Virus record (IMG/VR): IMGVR_UViG_3300031922_000090
Location: 1 to 64,000 of that record
Length of the DNA stretch: 64,000 nt
Reading direction: 5' to 3' (one strand)
From: a virus
The notes below the pieces were generated by a model. That model made no database searches and was not told the origin of the DNA. It was given only the letters and a program-made list of their open reading frames with translations. The translations under genes and the position numbers were made by a program. Of this stretch, positions 1,178 through 30,941 are shown in pieces. The stretch's first letter is position 1. Each line of letters begins with the position of its first letter.

Positions 1178-1588
1178 TTAAAGTTTGAAGATCCTGTTCG
1201 AATCGTTCGGCCAACTTACGGTAATGTTCCCGCCGTTCGGAATACAGGGAAGTCCCGTATAATTGTCGATATATGCAATGAGCCGGGAGGTTGTCTCAGT
1301 CCCGGTATGCCTGTAAATGACAATCGCTTCGAACTGATCGCCGGAGACTGCCGGAATCGTATGATCGTCCGCATCGCATACGCCATTCACTGCTGTCTTG
1401 TTTCCCAACGAAGCGGAACTTACGGCAACCCGCGCAATGGCAGGAATGTCGTTAAGAAAATCGTGCGTTGCCTGATCGACTAAATAGTCGGCACTATCGG
1501 CGAAGATCAACCGGATATCGTCTGCGGGCCAATTGATCGCGGCGATTGCGAAACCTTCTCGGCCTTTGTCGTACATGAAAGTTGCCAT
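1178..1588 (-). CDS. hypothetical tail-region protein
   Basis: 136-aa ORF starting 24 nt after the TMP stop, with an AGGAGA SD-like element about 8 nt upstream of the ATG. Confidence 0.45.
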   Translation of the reverse strand: MATFMYDKGREGFAIAAINWPADDIRLIFADSADYLVDQATHDFLNDIPAIARVAVSSASLGNKTAVNGVCDADDHTIPAVSGDQFEAIVIYRHTGTETTSRLIAYIDNYTGLPCIPNGGNITVSWPNDSNRIFKL

Positions 1589-1611: not shown

Positions 1612-4600
1612 TTAGATATCAACGCCCCTCGATCTCCAAGTCGAAACCATCTGATTAGCGACCTGCTGAGCGTCGGCGTTATTGACGTTAACGTTAAGGG
1701 AGAGAATCGGCGTCGAAGTGACTCCAGTATAAGGCGCTCCCCAATAGACACCCGCAGGTTGAGCGGGACCGATTCCAGCGGGCGAAGCGAAAAAAGATCC
1801 GGTCGTCTGAGAAACTTTGTTTCCGAGATCGGAGGCGGCATCGACCATTTTCGTCATTGCGAACGAAGCGGATTGTCCAATGGAAGCGGCAGCTCTCTGA
1901 ATAACGTTCCCGGCGCGGGATGCGGCGTCCCCGAGAAGCATGATTGAAGGATAGATCCGGTCCGTTGCAGCATCAATTCTGTAGCCGAACTCCGAGAGAG
2001 AAGAAGCAGCATTCCCGGAAACTTCAGCGATCGCGTGAAGCGGCGGCTCAACAATCTCCGGAAGCGCTTCATATTGCCTGCTCATAATCGTTAGGTTATC
2101 CGAAGCGGAGTTGACCTCGCCGGAGAAAGCCTTCAAGCGGCGTTCGCTTTCCTTGAATGCGCCTGTTACCTCTTTAGTCGTACCAGTAAGATCTTTGAGA
2201 GCTTTTTCCTGTTTTTCTTCCGGAGATTCTCGGCCAGTCACTGTCTTTTCTTCTTTAGCAATTATACCTTCAGAAAAAACACGGAGGATATCTGTGAGAC
2301 GGTCGCGGCATTCCTCAACCGTCGCCATAAGCTGCCCGAAGTATCTAAGATAATCCCACGCCCAATCGTTGAGACCTTGAATTCCTGGCAGGAACTTGTT
2401 AAACAATTCCTGGAACGAAAGAAGCTGACTCTGCATTGCGCGGGTTGTAACCTCGATACGCGCGATATCCTGTTCCATGCGTCGGCCCTGGAAGTACTGC
2501 AATACGCTTGCTACGGCGGTAACAGCAGCGGAAACGGCATTGACTATGTTGAGAGCCTTTGAAAAGCCCGTAGCTACCGCTGTCCCGGCTTTTGCAGCGG
2601 CTCCTCCGGCCTGTGCGGCGCTTTGTGCGGCGGAAGTCGCGGCTCTTGCGGCGTTCGTTGCGGTATCAGCAGCGTTTTTAGCAATTTCCGCAGTCTTCAT
2701 AGCGGTCGCTGCGGCAATTTCCCCGGATTTAGCAAGGTTTGTGATAACCGGCCCGATTTGCGCAAGATTCCCAACACCGAATGTTCCTGCAAAAGCATTA
2801 CGAATCACAGGAATTTTCCGGAGTATTCCGTTGAAACCGTCCATAACAGAACCAAAAAGATTTCTCGTAAGCCAGTCAGAAACACTTTTTGTCAGATTAT
2901 CAAAAATACCCTCGAGTTGCTTACTAAAAGGTTTAGTGAAAATATCACTGAAGGATGACAGCATTGACCGCCCCAGGTTCTGGAAAGATGTTGCAAAACC
3001 TTTGAAGTCCCGGTCAATCAGGTTACCAAAAATATCCTTAAAACCGACATTAAGAGTTTGCCGGAAACCGTTGACAGATTCAGTAAAGGCAAGCTGCATC
3101 GCAGCCCCGGATCTCAGCGAAGAAGAAACAATAAAACCAAACAAACCAGTATTTAATGCCTTAAAATCTTCGATATTCTTGTTTTCTGCGCTTGCTTTTC
3201 TCCGGAGGAAATTAAGATAGGCGTCTTCGATTTGTTTAGCGGATGCAGTACCGGAATCCCGAATCGTTTCGAAGGCCCTCCGTGCTCTATCCGCTTCTAC
3301 CGACAGTTCAGCAAACTGCCCTCCGGAGCGGATAAGCGTTTCATCGAAGGCAATACCAGCGGCACGATAAGCGGCAACTAAGTCGTCGATTGCCTGTTCC
3401 TGTTGCTTCCACTCTCCAATAAAATCGGGAGGAGGAGGAAGTTTGCGAACATCGCTATTTAATTCAGCGATGCGCTTATTGATCTCATCGAGTTCTCTAA
3501 TCTGCTGATCAAAGTCAAATTCCCTCTTATAAAGCCGCATCCGCTCTCGGGCTTCGGTAAGAACCTTTACCTGTTCCTGAATAGCGTTTGCTAAATTTTT
3601 ATGTCCTTTGTTAGCAGCCCGGTTTGCTGCGACTTCAAGATCCGAAATTTCCTCCGTCAATGAGCGTATAGTCCGGTCAACGTTGAAGCCCTCACTCATT
3701 GCTCGCCGGAATTGCTCGAATGTTTTCGGGAGATCCTTCACCCGGTCCTGAACCCGATCAAATACTTTATCGATGGACGCCATCTCTTTAGCATGGTCTC
3801 GAGTTGCTACGGCAGCCTGCTTTTGCGCATCGCGGTATTCCTTCAAGGAAAATGCGGTCTCGCCGACTTTCTTCGTTAAGCTACCGGCAGCGGCACCTCC
3901 TCTCTCCATTGCTTTTTGAGATTCGTCCCCCATAGACTTCATTGCCCCGGCAGAATTCTTCGCAGCGGTAGAAAGCCCATTTAGCTTATTGAGCCAATTC
4001 TCTAAAGCTTTCGCGGTCTCCCCGGCTCCGATTGCACGTGCGGCGGTTAGTGCGCCCTCAACTATCCACTTCAAACCATTCTGAAAAATCGCAACAATCC
4101 CATTCCAGATACTGATAAAGAAAGTTCTAACACCTGTCCAGACTGAGGAAATATAACCGGCAACCCGCGTTCCAAAAGCTTTCTCAATCCATTCCATAAT
4201 CCAACGTCCAAAAGAAGAGAAAGCATTCCCAAGATCTGTCCAGATTCCGAGTAGGACTGCCTTGATATCATCCCAATGTTTGTAGATGGTGTAGGCGATT
4301 GCGGCGAGTGCTGTACCAGCAGCCACAATCGCACCCATGCCAACAGTGACGGGCGCGGCGGCAGCCCCGAAGGCAATTAAAGCAGCTTTAGCAGAGCCGA
4401 GCGCAGCAGAGATTCCTCCAGCGGAGGCAAGTGACGCGATAAAGCCGGTAATCGAGGCTCCGATAGTAGACAGGGCTCCCCGTATGCCTTGCCCTTGGGT
4501 CAGAGACGCGGCGAAACCGGCGATAGCAACCGTCATGCTCTTGAAGCCTTCGGAAAATCGCCTTGCGTTGTCCAAGGCAAATGTCGCGGCGGCAGCCCCG

Positions 4601-6066
4601 AACTCAGCAATTGCCTGTCTTGAACTTGACAGTGCTCCCGGAATGCCCCGGAATCCAGCGATTATCGCGTTACCGAATCCCTGAATTCCTCCTACAACGC
4701 CACCAAGCATCTCTTTTAGGTGGAGCCCCTGGAGGAATGTAGCGAAGCCAGCAAAGATTCCTTTTCCCGTATTAAGATTTGTACCAAGCGTTAAAAACGA
4801 ACTGCCGATACTTGCCAAAATCGGTCCAAGAACTTTAAGTTCGCCTATCGAGCTAACTACCATCCCAAGCGCAACCATCGCCGGACCTGCAACGAGAGCA
4901 AGCCCCCCTAAAGCGATAATGAAAACCTGAATTGATTGCGGCATCCCGGCGAAAGCTTCGGCGAGCTTACCAAGACTATTAACCATCTTGATTGCCATAC
5001 CAAGCAATGTCTGAATCGCCGGAGCTAAAATTTTACCTACCTGGATTCCGACTGTCTCCAGAGATGACATTAGCTCTTCCCACTGGCCTGCAACGCCTCG
5101 CCGGATAATAGATGCCATCCTGTCAGCAGCACCCGTGAAATTTTCAATTTCGGCGCGAGTCCTAATAAACGCGGCTCCACCCTTATCAATAAGTGGAATT
5201 ACCTCAGACCACCGTTGGCCGAAGATCGCGTAGGCAGCGGCAGCATTAGTTGTTAAAGGCTGTAGTTCGGCAATAAGTTCTCTCAGTGGTTTAATTCTGC
5301 CCGTTGTATCCAGAACATTGATACCAAGGGCTTTCATTGTATCCGCCGCTTTCGGTGTCGCGGAGGAAAGATCGTTGATGATATTCCGGAGTGCTGTTCC
5401 GCCTCTCTCCCCACGGATACCGGCGTCGGCAAGAACACCAAGCGCAGCGGCAGCGTCGAGAAAATCCACCCCAACAGCTTTAGCTACAGGACCAACATAT
5501 GAAAAAGCCCACCCGAGTTCTTTGACCGATGTTGCGCCCGTAGCCGAGGTTTTTGCGAGAATATCCGCAATCTTTTGGGTATCCTCTGCTTGGAACCCAT
5601 AACCTTTAAGAATATCCGAAGTGATTTGCGCCGCATCCGCTAAAGCCATTTGCTCAGTGGCAGCGAGAGCCAAAAGACCCGGCATCGCCATGTAAATTTC
5701 GTTCGTCTTAAACCCGGCAGCGGCAAGATTTCCCATTGCCTCGGCAGCTTGTTTCGCTGAATACTGGGTCTTTGCCCCGAGTTCCATGGCCTGATCGGAG
5801 AGCTTTCTTAATTCCTCCCCGAAAATATCGCCAAGAGCGGAAACCCGGTTCATTTCCTTTTCGAAGCCAGCGAAAACCAGCGTAGCAGCGGTAGCAACCC
5901 CGGCAAGTGGGAGCGTGATTGCTTTCGTCATGCCCTCACCCATTGATTGCATCGCCTCGCCCTGCTCACGTAATTTTCTTTGGGTATCCTGAATACCTTT
6001 GGAAAAATCTGTTATGTCCATCCCAAGACGGACAAACAAATCGCCAATTTTGGTCCCCCCGGCCAT
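1612..6066 (-). CDS. tail tape measure protein
   Basis: 1484-aa ORF with TMP core AMELGAKTQYSAKQAAEAMGNLAAAGFKTNEIYMAMPGLLALA, an Ala/Gly-rich hydrophobic middle and a long coiled-coil C-terminal half. It follows the G/GT chaperone pair. Confidence 0.9.
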   Translation of the reverse strand: MAGGTKIGDLFVRLGMDITDFSKGIQDTQRKLREQGEAMQSMGEGMTKAITLPLAGVATAATLVFAGFEKEMNRVSALGDIFGEELRKLSDQAMELGAKTQYSAKQAAEAMGNLAAAGFKTNEIYMAMPGLLALAATEQMALADAAQITSDILKGYGFQAEDTQKIADILAKTSATGATSVKELGWAFSYVGPVAKAVGVDFLDAAAALGVLADAGIRGERGGTALRNIINDLSSATPKAADTMKALGINVLDTTGRIKPLRELIAELQPLTTNAAAAYAIFGQRWSEVIPLIDKGGAAFIRTRAEIENFTGAADRMASIIRRGVAGQWEELMSSLETVGIQVGKILAPAIQTLLGMAIKMVNSLGKLAEAFAGMPQSIQVFIIALGGLALVAGPAMVALGMVVSSIGELKVLGPILASIGSSFLTLGTNLNTGKGIFAGFATFLQGLHLKEMLGGVVGGIQGFGNAIIAGFRGIPGALSSSRQAIAEFGAAAATFALDNARRFSEGFKSMTVAIAGFAASLTQGQGIRGALSTIGASITGFIASLASAGGISAALGSAKAALIAFGAAAAPVTVGMGAIVAAGTALAAIAYTIYKHWDDIKAVLLGIWTDLGNAFSSFGRWIMEWIEKAFGTRVAGYISSVWTGVRTFFISIWNGIVAIFQNGLKWIVEGALTAARAIGAGETAKALENWLNKLNGLSTAAKNSAGAMKSMGDESQKAMERGGAAAGSLTKKVGETAFSLKEYRDAQKQAAVATRDHAKEMASIDKVFDRVQDRVKDLPKTFEQFRRAMSEGFNVDRTIRSLTEEISDLEVAANRAANKGHKNLANAIQEQVKVLTEARERMRLYKREFDFDQQIRELDEINKRIAELNSDVRKLPPPPDFIGEWKQQEQAIDDLVAAYRAAGIAFDETLIRSGGQFAELSVEADRARRAFETIRDSGTASAKQIEDAYLNFLRRKASAENKNIEDFKALNTGLFGFIVSSSLRSGAAMQLAFTESVNGFRQTLNVGFKDIFGNLIDRDFKGFATSFQNLGRSMLSSFSDIFTKPFSKQLEGIFDNLTKSVSDWLTRNLFGSVMDGFNGILRKIPVIRNAFAGTFGVGNLAQIGPVITNLAKSGEIAAATAMKTAEIAKNAADTATNAARAATSAAQSAAQAGGAAAKAGTAVATGFSKALNIVNAVSAAVTAVASVLQYFQGRRMEQDIARIEVTTRAMQSQLLSFQELFNKFLPGIQGLNDWAWDYLRYFGQLMATVEECRDRLTDILRVFSEGIIAKEEKTVTGRESPEEKQEKALKDLTGTTKEVTGAFKESERRLKAFSGEVNSASDNLTIMSRQYEALPEIVEPPLHAIAEVSGNAASSLSEFGYRIDAATDRIYPSIMLLGDAASRAGNVIQRAAASIGQSASFAMTKMVDAASDLGNKVSQTTGSFFASPAGIGPAQPAGVYWGAPYTGVTSTPILSLNVNVNNADAQQVANQMVSTWRSRGVDI

Positions 6067-6067
6067 A

Positions 6068-6813
6068 TTAGGAGCCCTCGCCCAAAATTCGAACGATCTC
6101 TTCTTTCTCCAGAGGCTTCATAGCTGGCGGCAATTTGCCACCGTAAGCAACCGTCAGAGCTTTAGCGATTTCTAACTGCTGTTGCCATGTTTGGCGTGGT
6201 TTCTCTCCTTTTGCCTCCCGGCGCTTAGGCATAAAGTCGGAAATCTTAAATGCTTTCCGTTTCCCACGGTGAGCATTTGCGAAGATTGTAGCGATTAGGG
6301 CAAACCGCGCGTCTTCAATTTCCAGACTCTCGATATAGGCATCGTATAGCCGGAAAAATTCAAACGGAGTAAGCCGGAAGAAAGAGTCGTCGGAAAGCTG
6401 AAGCTGGATCCGGGCAATCTGCCAAAGGCGTAGGTAGTCTAACCGGCCAGCGCGAGAAACGTCTCGTTGCTCATCCCTGCCGGTACTGCTAAAGGGCGGA
6501 CAGATCCGTCCTCCGGGCCGGAAATCGCATTCGTCCATGCTTTTGAGACCTGCCCCATGACGTAAGGCAAGTTTCCGAGATGGAGTAAACGGCCTACCTG
6601 TTTCTCGGTTAGCGTAGGGTCGTCTTCCCGCAAAGACAGCCATAGCATGAGCCGGACATCTGCCGTTTTCATCCCGGACCACGCTTCGGCGTTCATCACC
6701 GAACGCCCGGTTCGTTCTTCGAGTTCGATCAAGGCATTGAAATTTACCCGGAGCATTCGGATTTTGTCGAGTTCGATCTCGACAGAAGGTGTGATATAGC
6801 GCTGCGAAGCCAT
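6068..6813 (-). CDS. tail assembly chaperone, -1 frameshift fusion product (gpGT-like), predicted ~248 aa
   Basis: The G frame (codon starts = 0 mod 3) and the downstream frame of ORF 6068..6838 (= 1 mod 3) differ by exactly -1 on the minus strand. After the slip the sequence reads ...VRP(L/F)SSTGRDEQRDVSRAGRLDYLRLWQIARIQLQLSDD... Confidence 0.55.
6439..6813 (-). CDS. tail assembly chaperone (gpG-like)
   Basis: 124-aa ORF between the major tail protein and TMP. Its 3' end is overlapped by a -1 frame ORF, the canonical siphovirus G/GT layout. Confidence 0.7.
   Translation of the reverse strand: MASQRYITPSVEIELDKIRMLRVNFNALIELEERTGRSVMNAEAWSGMKTADVRLMLWLSLREDDPTLTEKQVGRLLHLGNLPYVMGQVSKAWTNAISGPEDGSVRPLAVPAGMSNETFLALAG
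6490..6496 (-). promoter_or_regulatory. candidate -1 programmed frameshift slippery heptamer C_CCU_UUA
   Basis: The minus strand reads CGC CCT TTA in the G frame, giving X_XXY_YYZ = C_CCU_UUA. It sits 16 codons before the G stop, and the -1 frame is open from here to 6068. Confidence 0.5.
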
Positions 6814-6953
6814 CGCTGGAGATCCTCTCCTGTATCATCTCCGGTCCCCCTTCAGATACCCTGTCTTGTACGCTACGCTGCCCGTAGACGCCCCACAGTA
6901 GAAAAGCGGAGACCAGACCCTCTTCTCTACTGAAAAAGATGCCTCAGACGATT

Positions 6954-7391
6954 CTAGGCAAGCGTCGGCGGGCCGGAAACCTTTGCCGTAACGGACGCCA
7001 TGAGAACCTCCGCCGGATCCGATGACATCTCGAAGCCGGTAAAAATAACCGGGATAGTCCAAGTTGTCGCACCCGTATCCGGAAAAACAATCTGAATGTT
7101 GCGCCGTGCCCGAGTAGTGATGTCCTTCAAAATTCCGGCAGAGTGCGAATGAGTCGGCTCCGTCGGGATGAAGTTTAGCTCGAAGGTTACCTCACCACCG
7201 TCAAGCAGCCCGGCAATGAAACGCCTCCACGGCGTCGGCGTGTTGTGCGTCGTGACGTCGATAGCGTCGGCGGAAATTGAAGGCCCTGAAATAGTGCGTA
7301 ATTCAGCAACAGTAGTGAAATTCTCTACTGGCGAAGCCCCATCTCCAAGCTTAAGAAGCGTCCCGAATGCGGAAACAGCAGCGCTAGACAT
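6954..7391 (-). CDS. major tail protein
   Basis: 145 aa. FGTLLKLGDG...FTTVAELRTISGPSISADAIDVTTHN...GGEVTFELNF is typical of siphovirus major tail proteins. It lies immediately upstream of the G/GT chaperones. Confidence 0.75.
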   Translation of the reverse strand: MSSAAVSAFGTLLKLGDGASPVENFTTVAELRTISGPSISADAIDVTTHNTPTPWRRFIAGLLDGGEVTFELNFIPTEPTHSHSAGILKDITTRARRNIQIVFPDTGATTWTIPVIFTGFEMSSDPAEVLMASVTAKVSGPPTLA

Positions 7392-7436: not shown

Positions 7437-7793
7437 TTACGGACGCGGGAGGTTAATTACAGCAAATCCAATATCGGCGGAAGAAGCTTCAAAGTGAAGT
7501 TTTCCTCCCGACTGTCGCCACCCGTCGAGACTTCTAAACGGCCCGTAAACATGAAATGCCCCGGCAGCAATAGAGTCGGCCACAATATCTTTCGTCCGCC
7601 CTCGCGCATTCGCAACCGAGTTTATCGTCACCGTTGCAGCCCCGGCTCCGGTATTTCGCGCGACGATGATCTCCGCTCCGGTAAGAACGAACTCATTCTT
7701 ACTCGCAACATCAGCGGCGGAAAAAATAACAGCGACACCTGCTGAAGGAAAACTTCCCGGAGCGTTAGTTTTTGTTACATTAGTGCGCGGCAT
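7437..7793 (-). CDS. small virion-module protein, paralog 1 of 3 (unknown function)
   Basis: 118 aa. Shares T(K)T.APGS(F/Y)P..GV...AD...KN.F...G......RN.....TVTINS....GR..DI...S.A.GA.HV(Y/F)GPF....GW.Q.GGKLH with 7816..8178. Confidence 0.6.
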   Translation of the reverse strand: MPRTNVTKTNAPGSFPSAGVAVIFSAADVASKNEFVLTGAEIIVARNTGAGAATVTINSVANARGRTKDIVADSIAAGAFHVYGPFRSLDGWRQSGGKLHFEASSADIGFAVINLPRP

Positions 7794-7815: not shown

Positions 7816-8178
7816 TTATTCGTTCAACGGGAGAGCTACAACAGCAAACTTAACGTTGTTGTCTTCACCTTCAAGGTGAAGTTTTCCACCTGTTTGCTGC
7901 CACCCAAGCAGTTCCTTAAATGGACCGAAAACATGAACAGCACCAACAGCGAGAGATTGCGCTGTGATATCCCGGACCCGGCCCTGCGCATCGGGAGAGG
8001 AGTTAATTGTCACGGTTCTAGCAAGCGTAGCGTGCGCGTTGCGCACGAAGAGAAGATCATTCCCTCCCATTGTAAAAGCGTTTTTATTAACCGCGTCGGC
8101 GTCGGTCCATACCATCGTTACACCATCGGCAGGATAACTTCCGGGTGCGGTTGTTTTCGTGATAGGTGATCGCGCCAT
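7816..8178 (-). CDS. small virion-module protein, paralog 2 of 3
   Basis: 120 aa, roughly 40% identical by eye to 7437..7793. AACCGATAATATA motif 22 nt upstream of the ATG. Confidence 0.6.
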   Translation of the reverse strand: MARSPITKTTAPGSYPADGVTMVWTDADAVNKNAFTMGGNDLLFVRNAHATLARTVTINSSPDAQGRVRDITAQSLAVGAVHVFGPFKELLGWQQTGGKLHLEGEDNNVKFAVVALPLNE

Positions 8179-17638: not shown

Positions 17639-18223
17639 TTATCTTCGGTCTGAAATAAAAAAGCTTCCTTTAGAGTGCTGAAAAGACTTTCGTAAAAAAT
17701 CCAGAGCTTCCAATCGTAGTAGCCCTACTCGTTTCACGGGAATTCTCAGTTCCTCCGCGATAAGGCGTTCCGGACACTCCTTAAGGTAGAACAGATGAAT
17801 AATTTTAACCTGCTCCGGAAGAAGTTTTTCTCCGGCTATCCGCATAACTTTTTCAAAAAGCGCGCGATTTGAAAGCCGTGCTATGAAATCTTCGGATGAA
17901 ACCAGCTTTTGAGGTAACACCGAAGGGTCAGTCGGAATAAATCGGGAGGAGTAGCGGCGCTCCGAGATAATAAAATCCTTTGTTCCTCCGATAATCCGGC
18001 GATAGGCAAAGGTGGAAAGCTTAACCGGCCCCCCATTATGACGATTTTTTGCCCGGAGCACGGTAACAACAGATTCCGATATCGCGTCTTCAAATGAAGC
18101 GGTTTCTATATTACGACCACCCCAAACACGTCCGGTAAGCTTCACGATGAGCGGGTAAACATCAACAGGACCGTTTCCATTCGGTACAACGAGACTTAGA
18201 CGCGACGCAAACTGCTTTGCCAT
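17639..18223 (-). CDS. sigma-70 family (ECF-like) factor-like protein, late-module copy
   Basis: Region-2-like FEDAISESVVTVLRAK...LSTFAYRRIIGGTKDFI and region-4-like LPEQVKIIHLFYLKECPERLIAEELRIPVKRVGLLRLEALDFLRK. The start overlaps the TerL stop (TAATG). Confidence 0.5.
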   Translation of the reverse strand: MAKQFASRLSLVVPNGNGPVDVYPLIVKLTGRVWGGRNIETASFEDAISESVVTVLRAKNRHNGGPVKLSTFAYRRIIGGTKDFIISERRYSSRFIPTDPSVLPQKLVSSEDFIARLSNRALFEKVMRIAGEKLLPEQVKIIHLFYLKECPERLIAEELRIPVKRVGLLRLEALDFLRKSFQHSKGSFFISDRR

Positions 18224-27969: not shown

Positions 27970-28533
27970 TCAGTAAAGCCGAACTTCCCAGATTAAAACG
28001 TTCCTGCCGACTGCCCACCCGACAGCCCGGCTATAAGCTGAAAATTCTACGACATGATCAGGATACAAGATGAGTAGCTCCTGAAGATCGTCATAGCTTG
28101 CAGGCGAACAGTAACGGCGCAAAAGAATCTCAGCGGTCAGTCCCCGGTACTCCCGCGCCTTCAGAAGAGCCTCCCGCATCCGGATCATTTTTCCGGAATC
28201 TTCCGGCTCCCGAATCGCGGCAAAAAGACGGAGCCCACCAACGTCTTCGAGAAGTTCACCCTGAAGAACAGCGTGCCTATCCGGCGCGGTCTCGTTTGCT
28301 ACCAAATCCGGTTTTCTGCCCGTGTTAAGGTAGCCAGTCCAAAACGGGATAGCGCGGCGAACGGGAAATTCCCAGATGCGGTCAGATCCACCAAGCCGAC
28401 TAACCCGGCGAAACATAAGGCGTCCGGTATAGTTTCCCGGAACATCTTCGGGCCTCGACCACGTCTGGAGCTTGTTCCCAAGCTTCCCGCGATTCCAAGC
28501 CTCGAAAAACGCCCGTTTATCCGGCAGCCTCAA
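27970..28533 (-). CDS. hypothetical protein
   Basis: 187-aa ORF ending ...VLIWEVRLY. No motif recognised. Confidence 0.45.
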   Translation of the reverse strand: MRLPDKRAFFEAWNRGKLGNKLQTWSRPEDVPGNYTGRLMFRRVSRLGGSDRIWEFPVRRAIPFWTGYLNTGRKPDLVANETAPDRHAVLQGELLEDVGGLRLFAAIREPEDSGKMIRMREALLKAREYRGLTAEILLRRYCSPASYDDLQELLILYPDHVVEFSAYSRAVGWAVGRNVLIWEVRLY

Positions 28534-29513
28534 TCTGGAAGGTCTCCTTCGGGCGGAAGTCCGGCGGAAATCGTAAGCTTGATCGAATCGGCAAGGGACG
28601 AGGCGTATTGCATAACAACATCTTCCGGAATTTCCTCTTCAGGCGGAGCGGAGGTTCCGTCAGGCAAATGTTTCCCGATCTCATAGACAAAAACCAAGTG
28701 CTGACGTTCCCCGGCTTCAACCGTCGCACTATCGGCTTGAACCCATCCCGGAAAGGCGAAATCATGGGAGACAACCCGTGCGCCCGGCTTCATCTCGCTG
28801 GAGAGCTTAGCGGCGATCTTCGCATTGGAGGCTGTCAGCAGGTAGACGAAGACGACATCGGCGTCGTCGATCTTCGCATCCTGAATCAACCCCTCTACAA
28901 CCTCGCCCCTTGCCGATAGCTCCATCGCTTTCAGCAACGCACGCGCAACACGGGCGCGGTCTTTGTTCATCTCGACGCCCCGGACGCGGGCACGGTAGCG
29001 GTCTCCGGCAACAGCGAGTACACGTCCGTCTCCGGCTCCCAGATCGACCAGCAGTTCCCCCGGATTCAGCTTCGCTTTCGCCAGCGCAACTTCGATTACC
29101 AGTTGATCCGTAGAAACAAACGGCGCGAGAGAATTCGGCTCGTCCTCATAGCCTCGAACCAAGTTCATCATGAGATGAAGCGCTTCCTGGAACTGGTGAA
29201 TGTAGATCCCCGCTCCGACTTCCTCCTCCGAAATCGGACCCTCCGGCGCGATACCGTTCTCAGGGTCTCCTTCAGCGGCGGTCTGCAATCCCGCCCACAG
29301 AAAAAGCCGGAGATCTGCTACCGACTTCGGGATGAACTCACCTTTCAGAAGATCGCGCCCCGTCCGCTCCTGAATTAAATCGATAGCGTTGAAGTCGAGT
29401 TGTAGCGTCCGGAGCTTCCCGCCGAGAAAAACCTTGAATCGCTTAGGGGCGGTATTACCGATGACAGGCTTTTTCCCGCCCGGCATTGTGACAACATTAC
29501 TCATCTCGATCAC
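28530..29513 (-). CDS. class I SAM-dependent methyltransferase fused to an N-terminal tail-assembly-chaperone (gpG)-like domain
   Basis: Motif I LLVDLGAGDGRVLAVA, later VVFVYLL and PGARVVSHDFAFPGW. The N-terminus KLRTLQLDFNAIDLIQERTGRDLL...VADLRLFLWAGL aligns with gpG 6439..6813 (IRMLRVNFNALIELEERTGRSVM...TADVRLMLWLSL). Confidence 0.65.
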   Translation of the reverse strand: MIEMSNVVTMPGGKKPVIGNTAPKRFKVFLGGKLRTLQLDFNAIDLIQERTGRDLLKGEFIPKSVADLRLFLWAGLQTAAEGDPENGIAPEGPISEEEVGAGIYIHQFQEALHLMMNLVRGYEDEPNSLAPFVSTDQLVIEVALAKAKLNPGELLVDLGAGDGRVLAVAGDRYRARVRGVEMNKDRARVARALLKAMELSARGEVVEGLIQDAKIDDADVVFVYLLTASNAKIAAKLSSEMKPGARVVSHDFAFPGWVQADSATVEAGERQHLVFVYEIGKHLPDGTSAPPEEEIPEDVVMQYASSLADSIKLTISAGLPPEGDLPD

Positions 29514-30023: not shown

Positions 30024-30941
30024 TCATTGCCGCTGGTCAAAGCTACGCTGCAATTCGATCAAACGCTGCAAGATCTCCGAAACACGGCGCGGCATAGCGA
30101 TAACATCGGCTTGGGCGTGCGCCTCAGTGGTGTCCGTCCGCTCGACCATCGGCCCCGAAAAAGGAGTACCGATGATAAAGCGCTCGTTAAGGTACAAGGC
30201 GCGTTGCGGAATCGGGATCTCCGGGCGGAGATCCTGCTCGCCAGCGTCGGTCGGAACGTCGGGAATCCAACGCAAGTAGTGATCGCTGATAAGATCCCAC
30301 CTTCCGGGTGCGCCAACACCATGCACGTAACGTGCGCGAAGCAGAAGCCCAACACTCATGGATTCCCCACGAATGATAAAATTCCAGAACCGGCGTCGTT
30401 CGGTATCATCGAACCGGACGGCGAACGGACCACCAAGAACGGACTCATACGGTTCAGGAATCTCGCCGATACCTTCTACCCGTTGAAGTTCCGTCCTCAA
30501 CGCGAGAGCATCGCCATGATGCGAAAGCGCATCAGGCAACAGGTATCTCTTCTCTCCCGTTGCGATGCCGTTTTCGTCAAGAACAGGCTGCCATGCGCCC
30601 GAAGGAGCGGTAACATGCTTCGGCCAGCGGAAGACTCCGGGCAGGTTCGGAACAGCAGCTTCGGCGTTTGTGATCACGGTATGCGACAAAACAGGCAGCC
30701 CGTTAGCCCCCCGGACGTAGTGATAAACGTAGTACGGTTCCTTCGGTGGTAGAGTCCCGGCAGAGGAATCAAACCAGCGTTGAATCCGGCGAGTCTTGTC
30801 CCATGCCGGAGCCTGCTCACCGTAAAGCTGAAAGTAGGCGGCACGGGTCAGTCTGGGAAAAAGGCTGAGTTCCGTAAGCGGGTACTGTATCGTATCCGGT
30901 TGCGGTAGCACGGTCGGGATTGAATGGGGAACAGGTTTCAT
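30024..30941 (-). CDS. hypothetical protein
   Basis: 305-aa ORF with an AGGAGAG SD. CGTATAAC motif 16 nt upstream. Confidence 0.5.
   Translation of the reverse strand: MKPVPHSIPTVLPQPDTIQYPLTELSLFPRLTRAAYFQLYGEQAPAWDKTRRIQRWFDSSAGTLPPKEPYYVYHYVRGANGLPVLSHTVITNAEAAVPNLPGVFRWPKHVTAPSGAWQPVLDENGIATGEKRYLLPDALSHHGDALALRTELQRVEGIGEIPEPYESVLGGPFAVRFDDTERRRFWNFIIRGESMSVGLLLRARYVHGVGAPGRWDLISDHYLRWIPDVPTDAGEQDLRPEIPIPQRALYLNERFIIGTPFSGPMVERTDTTEAHAQADVIAMPRRVSEILQRLIELQRSFDQRQ

Follow-up and report, generated by a model that had tools for sequence, protein, structure and literature searches.

What is a methyltransferase-like domain doing on a phage tail assembly chaperone? Such chaperones are regarded as passive, non-catalytic scaffolds, and the G/GT frameshift is among the most conserved features of long-tailed phages. 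The question is raised by one gene in a 64,000-nucleotide stretch of viral DNA (the window), comprising positions 1 to 64,000 of record IMGVR_UViG_3300031922_000090 in IMG/VR, a public repository of contigs from viral metagenomes. This gene, an open reading frame (ORF) at 28530..29513 on the minus strand, encodes a protein of 327 amino acids (aa) that carries a domain similar to the lambda chaperone gpG at the amino-terminus and a domain similar to protein lysine methyltransferases at the carboxy-terminus (hereafter, the fusion). An initial annotation, made from the sequence alone, had reported the ORF at this position and far from the tail genes; the ORF is present, and the genes for the tail tube, G/T and tape measure proteins lie ∼21 kb away. 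Translation begins at a GTG codon with GGAG 5′ of it, and four bases (GTGA) are common to this start and the stop of an upstream ORF of 60 aa, while the stop of the fusion gene overlaps the start of a downstream 187-aa ORF (27970..28533, minus strand). A protein identical to the fusion, P0001, is encoded on a 77.6-kb JGI contig.

Four segments can be delimited in the fusion, all on the minus strand: the gpG-like tail assembly chaperone domain (29154..29444, residues ∼24–120), modeled as a beta hairpin followed by four helices; an interdomain linker of low confidence (29127..29153, residues ∼121–129); a seven-beta-strand protein lysine methyltransferase domain of the archaeal aKMT type (28665..29126, residues 130–283); and an acidic carboxy-terminal tail (28533..28664, residues 284–327) predicted to form an amphipathic helix, placed at residues 297–316 by AlphaFold2 (AF2). 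The full-length AF2 model showed a predicted local distance difference test score (pLDDT) of 85 and a predicted template-modeling score (pTM) of 0.62. The pLDDT dropped to 57 in the block of residues 121–130, with flanks at 85–98. Given the pTM and the low-confidence linker, the relative orientation of the domains is undefined, and they are best regarded as beads on a string.

The amino-terminal domain had been proposed to resemble the phage's own gpG, and a pairwise BLASTP comparison had been suggested as a check. This comparison was significant (E = 2e-10, 43.1 bits), with 25 of 74 columns identical (34%) between residues 33–105 of the fusion and 17–79 of gpG, and the pentapeptide ERTGR was found in both proteins. 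For one comparison, such similarity is far beyond chance. Both proteins also matched phrog_2115, annotated as “tail protein” (E = 1.9e-6 for the fusion and 4.3e-15 for gpG), and both gave weak matches below the cut-off to the Pfam family PF11836, Phage_TAC_11 (E = 0.086 for the fusion). A profile built from residues 1–127 of the window protein together with the corresponding segments of 17 homologues was used in an exhaustive search of 1.84 billion cluster representatives. It retrieved 5130 proteins at E ≤ 0.001, including 803 at E ≤ 1e-10; fusions aside, almost all of the best 150 were 100–140 aa long, the size of stand-alone chaperones. The AF2 model of the domain (pLDDT 83) showed the beta hairpin and four helices and was matched in BFVD to predicted viral proteins labeled “tail assembly chaperone” or “tail tube protein” (probability 1.0, TM 0.5–0.6), the latter label being the wording of the Pfam description of PF11836. 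The profile search, the profile–profile comparison described below and the fold matches to viral proteins annotated as chaperones thus support the assignment of this half to the gpG-type tail assembly chaperone domains. A fold search of each half had also been suggested: the carboxy-terminal half was matched to a solved structure of aKMT, and the amino-terminal half found only the predicted viral chaperones, as Foldseek returned no significant match to its model among the solved structures of the Protein Data Bank (PDB; best E = 1.7).

The carboxy-terminal half matched aKMT of Sulfolobus over residues 130–283 (PDB 5fa8, E = 1.6e-27; 5jwj, E = 1.5e-26), with 36–37% identity over ∼153 residues, and the NCBIfam family of archaeal protein-lysine N-methyltransferases, NF041081 (E = 3.3e-26). 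Archaeal aKMT methylates protein lysines with broad specificity, and FAM173A/B of eukaryotic mitochondria are distantly related to it (PMC9006661). The full-length model was superimposed by Foldseek on aKMT structure 5fad with a template-modeling score (TMt) of 0.93 and a root-mean-square deviation of 0.9 Å over 153 columns at 37% identity, the amino-terminal lid included; the next fold family followed at about 1e-10, nine to ten orders of magnitude weaker. All the motifs quoted for this half in the initial annotation (FVSTDQ, LLVDLGAGDGR, VVFVYLL and PGARVVSHDFAFPGW) were found in the translation. Its statement that they recall protein lysine methyltransferases rather than DNA methylases is borne out by the aKMT matches, by the absence of a [DNS]PP[YFW] motif from the fusion translation and by the absence of DNA methylase families from the Pfam, NCBIfam and PHROG matches of the window protein. 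Identity as a DNA or RNA methylase was accordingly rejected, as the best matches to families of such enzymes were at 0.001 or weaker and those to aKMT far stronger. The structure 5bxy carries the label “RNA methyltransferase,” but this is the depositor's name for an aKMT-like protein and does not support an RNA methylase.

An alignment of 30 fusions, with a mean column identity of 27%, revealed that the residues expected to bind the cofactor are invariant. These are D157, G159, G161, D162, G163 and R164 of motif I (DxGxGDGR) and the acidic E181 after strand 2, all of which align with aKMT; Y224, L225, N230, F252 and W257 are invariant as well. In the lid (LAPFVPT), L129, A130 and V133 are invariant and P131 and P134 nearly so. 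Such conservation suggests that cofactor binding is under purifying selection, which argues for an active enzyme. The assignment of the carboxy-terminal half to the aKMT/FAM173-type protein lysine methyltransferases, with intact S-adenosylmethionine-binding residues, is supported, and the domain is probably catalytically active.

The fusion is not confined to the window. About 30 cluster representatives with the same combination of domains were found, all metagenomic and 30–50% identical to the window protein, and the ∼15 loci whose gene contexts were examined were all phage. A word-indexed search yielded ∼20 proteins of 254–368 aa in which both domains were covered, with identities of 30–49%, together with many cellular proteins of ∼180 aa matched by the methyltransferase half alone; an exhaustive search added ten further fusions. 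In a neighbor-joining tree of the methyltransferase domains only, the fusions formed one clade, bar two short and probably truncated sequences, apart from ∼100 stand-alone cellular homologues and from viral methyltransferase genes devoid of a chaperone domain. Fusions encoded in tail modules and those relocated elsewhere, as in the window, fell in the same clade. The fusions appear to be a single, old, phage-specific family, for which a single origin is likely on the basis of this tree. The viral aKMT-like domains lacking a chaperone domain (L020 6483-8483, L039 6744-8432 and L021–L038) are not in recognizable tail modules, and some of them end much longer ORFs, such as one of 666 aa on a 430-kb contig.

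The gene order of the relatives is informative as to where such a protein could act. In at least nine of these relatives (gene order at loci L007, L008, L012–L019, L141, L143, L144 and L150), the fusion gene occupies the gpG slot, between the genes for the tube and the tape measure, and homologues of the tail tube protein of the window are encoded directly upstream of it. At L007, the order is tube, a 253-aa protein with a phrog_2115 domain (chaperone plus extension), fusion and tape measure. At L008, the fusion is followed by a T-bearing ORF and then by the tape measure gene, and the IMG/VR loci L012–L019, whose genes were recognized by homology to the tube, T and tape measure proteins and to the 135-aa protein encoded downstream in the window, have the same order. 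This arrangement of tube, fusion, permanently fused chaperone-T and tape measure was observed in eight relatives. The ORF that follows the fusion gene is 216–241 aa long, with both halves in one frame. Its carboxy-terminal half is homologous to the T frame of the window. PHROG scans of these ORFs were nearly blank, and the amino-terminal half was recognized as chaperone-like with a custom profile and by hhalign against the fusion amino-terminal domains (probability 96.6%, E = 6e-10). In the tail-module phages, chaperone-methyltransferase and chaperone-T are thus each encoded by a complete gene of their own, and the customary G/GT frameshift is absent.

A scan of IMG/VR anchored on the tail tube protein placed this arrangement among related tail modules. 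The fusion accompanied by a single-ORF chaperone-T was present in 6 of 34 modules. A further 14 of the 34 contained a small stand-alone G (109–130 aa) and/or a separate short T ORF (65–110 aa, or 280 aa if its open frame extends back across G), the layout that would be expected for the frameshift arrangement; L120, the closest relative of the window, is one of them. The remaining loci were truncated or had no chaperone or T match.

The window itself retains an ordinary pair. Its resident chaperone gpG (6439..6813, minus strand, 124 aa), a paralogue of the amino-terminal domain of the fusion, is encoded between the genes for the tail tube protein (6954..7391, minus strand, 145 aa; PF16461 Phage_TTP_12, E = 1.1e-9) and the tape measure protein (1612..6066, minus strand, 1484 aa; PF10145 PhageMin_Tail, E = 1.1e-45). 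The former is a candidate substrate of the methyltransferase, and the latter is the presumed docking partner of the chaperone domains. A slippery heptamer of the X XXY YYZ form, C CCT TTA, was read from the sequence at 6490..6496 (minus strand), near the 3′ end of gpG. The gpG-frame codons at this site are CGC CCT TTA, and the −1 frame yields PFSSTGRDEQ..., i.e., the ORF ending at 6068. This overlapping G/T ORF (6068..6838, minus strand) lies in the −1 frame relative to gpG, and its T-domain portion, corresponding to the gpT part of gpGT (6068..6489, minus strand), matched phrog_337 “tail protein” (E = 2.5e-6). The position between the tube and tape measure genes and the CCCTTTA slippery site with a −1 T frame mark the ORF at 6439..6813 as a bona fide chaperone. 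The window fusion, on the other hand, has no overlapping T frame and is not located in the gpG slot.

The relocated type comprises the fusions of the window, L001/L011, L003, L005, L009, L010 and probably L026. Here the gene lies amid unknown and nucleotide-metabolism genes; at L001 and L003, it is at the head of the structural genes, a few genes (1–2.5 kb) upstream of the terminase gene. In the branch of the window, the fusion gene has been transferred to a long leftward operon whose genes are of early or middle type, and the ordinary G/GT pair has been kept. A promoter and terminator scan near the fusion gene revealed no clear operon boundary. Two neighbors are conserved with it: a 305-aa protein (30024..30941, minus strand), which travels with the relocated fusion and is 37–39% identical to the products of syntenic genes in L001, L003 and L005 and also present in L010, and the 187-aa protein introduced above, which is 44–49% identical to the products of genes adjoining or near the fusion gene in L005 and L010. 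No Pfam, PHROG or PDB match was obtained for either; they could be partners or substrates of the enzyme. An acidic carboxy-terminal extension with a helix is common to many fusions of the relocated type, and the tail-module fusions are all without it.

The tail chaperones of lambda and TP901-1 suggest what the protein may do. In these systems, the tape measure protein is bound by gpG, and recruitment of the tube protein depends on the T domain (PMC4493119). A mutant producing only the permanently fused G-T forms normal-looking but non-infectious particles, which implies that a T-less chaperone is required in the right ratio (PMC4493119). From the gene contents of their tail modules, the fusion is the only candidate T-less chaperone in the slot of the tail-module phages, and its role as the gpG equivalent would be the simplest reading for this reason. 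Targeting to the tape measure or tail tube, which the initial annotation had considered, gains support because the relatives carry the fusion gene in the gpG slot, with the tape measure gene downstream; the support, drawn from gene order, is strong although indirect.

We therefore consider it moderately probable that members of the fusion family methylate lysines of tail components (the tape measure and/or the tube) during assembly, and that the window copy does likewise beside G/GT. The chaperone domain would bind the tape measure protein during tail assembly, as gpG does. The methyltransferase would thereby be held at the usual place of the T domain of gpGT, beside the tape measure and the incoming tube subunits, where it could methylate lysines of either protein. 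The fusion protein would then leave as the tube polymerizes, like other chaperones, and would be absent from the virion. In the tail-module phages, it would act as the gpG equivalent that coats the tape measure, with the enzyme domain exposed where the tube subunits arrive. A more far-reaching version of this proposal is put forward tentatively, as a possibility to which we attach less weight: in one siphovirus lineage, the G/GT frameshift would have been replaced by a chaperone-methyltransferase serving as an obligatory T-less coat of the tape measure and by a hard-wired chaperone-T, so that assembly would be coupled to phage-encoded lysine methylation of tail proteins; the window copy would be a relocated accessory working on the same intermediates beside a normal G/GT pair.

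Several observations weigh against methylation of tail proteins by the fusion. The match to NF041081 scored 92.1 bits, below the equivalog cut-off of 200, and the domain is thus a relative rather than an orthologue of archaeal aKMT, whose substrate specificity cannot be transferred to it. The amino-terminal domains of the fusions are no closer to the chaperone of their own genome than to those of others, with 12–31% identity throughout. The paralogues are old, and this comparison provides no co-evolution signal and does not support shared binding. A search for an invariant lysine in the tail tube proteins of the fusion-bearing phages was negative. The neighbor-joining tree carries no bootstrap support values. 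The window fusion, which as noted lies ∼21 kb away from the tail module, shares its operon with genes for a dCMP deaminase and an exonuclease and with unknown genes, and so the timing and partners of this copy could differ; it also has its own conserved neighbors and a carboxy-terminal helix that the tail-module forms lack.

On account of the chaperone comparison, of the tube proteins without an invariant lysine and of the different operon, neighbors and helix of the window copy, a rival in which the relocated copy has another target has been kept under consideration. It holds that the chaperone-like domain of the window copy now serves as a generic module for binding and that the enzyme methylates a non-tail target, either a host protein (in takeover or anti-defence) or a neighboring phage protein such as the 305-aa or 187-aa protein. 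The synteny of these two unknown proteins with the fusion in several relocated-type relatives speaks for it, although it may merely reflect the common descent of related phages, and the broad specificity that aKMT-type enzymes can have would accommodate such a target. However, the relocated amino-terminal domains have stayed close to ordinary stand-alone chaperones and rank highest in the profile search; the relocated and tail-module methyltransferase domains share one clade; and the gene of L001 and L003 is only 1–2.5 kb upstream of the terminase gene. We regard this rival as unlikely.

Two further explanations are less likely than another target for the relocated copy. The initial annotation had also raised the option that the enzyme is loaded into the virion for injection, i.e., that the chaperone domain brings the methyltransferase into the tail lumen with the tape measure and that the enzyme is ejected into the next host. 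In its favor is only the logic of association with the tape measure, since tape measure proteins are ejected at infection and enzyme fusions to them occur in other phages. The option found no support, as gpG and gpGT are assembly factors that in phage lambda are not retained in finished tails (PMC4493119), and a folded domain of ∼17 kDa per chaperone copy would be unlikely to fit in a siphovirus tube beside the tape measure; we consider it highly improbable. Slightly less credible still is a catalytically irrelevant methyltransferase, present as a mere structural spacer or for protein binding in place of, or in addition to, the T domain, whose position relative to the chaperone domain it shares, since the S-adenosylmethionine-binding residues are invariant in 30 otherwise divergent sequences, the model superimposes closely on cofactor-bound aKMT and the tail-module phages retain a separate T domain.

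With the window fusion and two tail-module fusions as queries, tblastn found no match in 50,697 deposited phage genomes. When 185,579 species-representative genomes of bacteria and archaea were searched, the best 80 matches were stand-alone cellular methyltransferases and included no prophage fusion; they came from Acidobacteriota (Bryobacterales), Bathyarchaeia, Thermoproteota, Chloroflexota and Parapedobacter, chiefly from Acidobacteriota and archaea. A literature search found no paper combining tail assembly chaperone, protein methyltransferase and tape measure, and none of the top-ranked matches of a looser search paired “phage-encoded” with “protein lysine methyltransferase.” The earlier remark that no such fusion had been described thus holds for the genomes and papers searched. 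Each of the two domains is known; what appears to be undescribed is that they are combined, that the combination occupies the gpG slot and that the frameshift is lost along with this.

Other features of the window were recorded in the course of the analysis. Just upstream of the tail tube gene are two adjacent and clearly paralogous genes for proteins of 118 and 120 aa (7437..7793 and 7816..8178, minus strand), and no Pfam match was found for the 118-aa protein. The tape measure gene is followed by that of the 135-aa protein (1178..1588, minus strand), which belongs to phrog_644 and has at least 513 relatives in IMG/VR. In an IMG/VR scan anchored on this protein, no tube, chaperone or T-domain match of the window type was present upstream at 77 of 80 loci. 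A sigma-70 region 2-like gene (17639..18223, minus strand) lies between the large terminase and portal genes and is found at the same position in relatives (L001 13277-13933, L003 14599-15246 and L026 14899-15531). The segment 34517..34949 (minus strand) contains three to four copies, ∼130 bp apart, of a unit in which a sigma-70-like promoter (TTGACT, 17 nt, TATGCT) precedes a strong hairpin (GCCGGAATCCTTCGGGATTCCGGC) and a run of T residues; no array was reported there by Tandem Repeats Finder, and no Rfam match was obtained.

The fusion family points to an unrecognized step of tail assembly, in which the phage would modify its own tail proteins enzymatically. That the fusion takes the gpG slot while the frameshift disappears in some phages strengthens this view. 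Under the more far-reaching version given above, the fusion would be both the first protein lysine methyltransferase known to be encoded by a phage and the first tail chaperone known to be catalytic. The case is directly testable, since the enzyme and its docking domain are defined and the candidate substrates are few, and it also provides a natural experiment on the importance of the G:GT ratio.

According to a 2026 paper on host-dependent tail methylation, there is hardly any documentation of protein methylation in phages (PMC13445384). The same work shows that methylation of a mycobacteriophage tail protein, dependent on MepM of the host, can matter for infectivity (PMC13445384). In that system, the enzyme is host-encoded and of another family, the modified residues are reported to be Glu and Ser in a receptor-binding tail protein, and there is no chaperone-type targeting (PMC13445384). 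The ribosomal protein L11 lysine methyltransferase PrmA is comparable to the fusion in its architecture, with a substrate-recognition amino-terminal domain, a flexible linker and a class I methyltransferase. Its amino-terminal domain and its substrate are, however, unrelated to those of the fusion, and the similarity is weak (Pfam E 0.2; Foldseek 1e-9 against 2e-19 for aKMT). Closer counterparts are known for each half. Sulfolobus islandicus aKMT (5fa8, 5fad and 5jwj) and FAM173A/B (ANT-KMT and ATPSc-KMT) share with the carboxy-terminal half the small seven-beta-strand fold, the amino-terminal lid and the cofactor motifs, whereas the fusion enzyme is phage-encoded, joined to a chaperone domain and placed in its own clade apart from the ∼180-aa cellular stand-alone proteins. 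With lambda gpG/gpGT, the amino-terminal half shares a sequence family (phrog_2115 and, distantly, PF11836) and probably a predicted fold, and the fusion gene of the relatives shares the slot between the tube and tape measure genes. The lambda-type gpG gene is located in the tail module, whereas the window fusion is outside it, with a separate canonical G/GT pair. Like the fusion, gpGT is a chaperone domain with a carboxy-terminal passenger domain; the passenger of gpGT is the T domain, added by a −1 frameshift, and that of the fusion is an enzyme, joined in frame.

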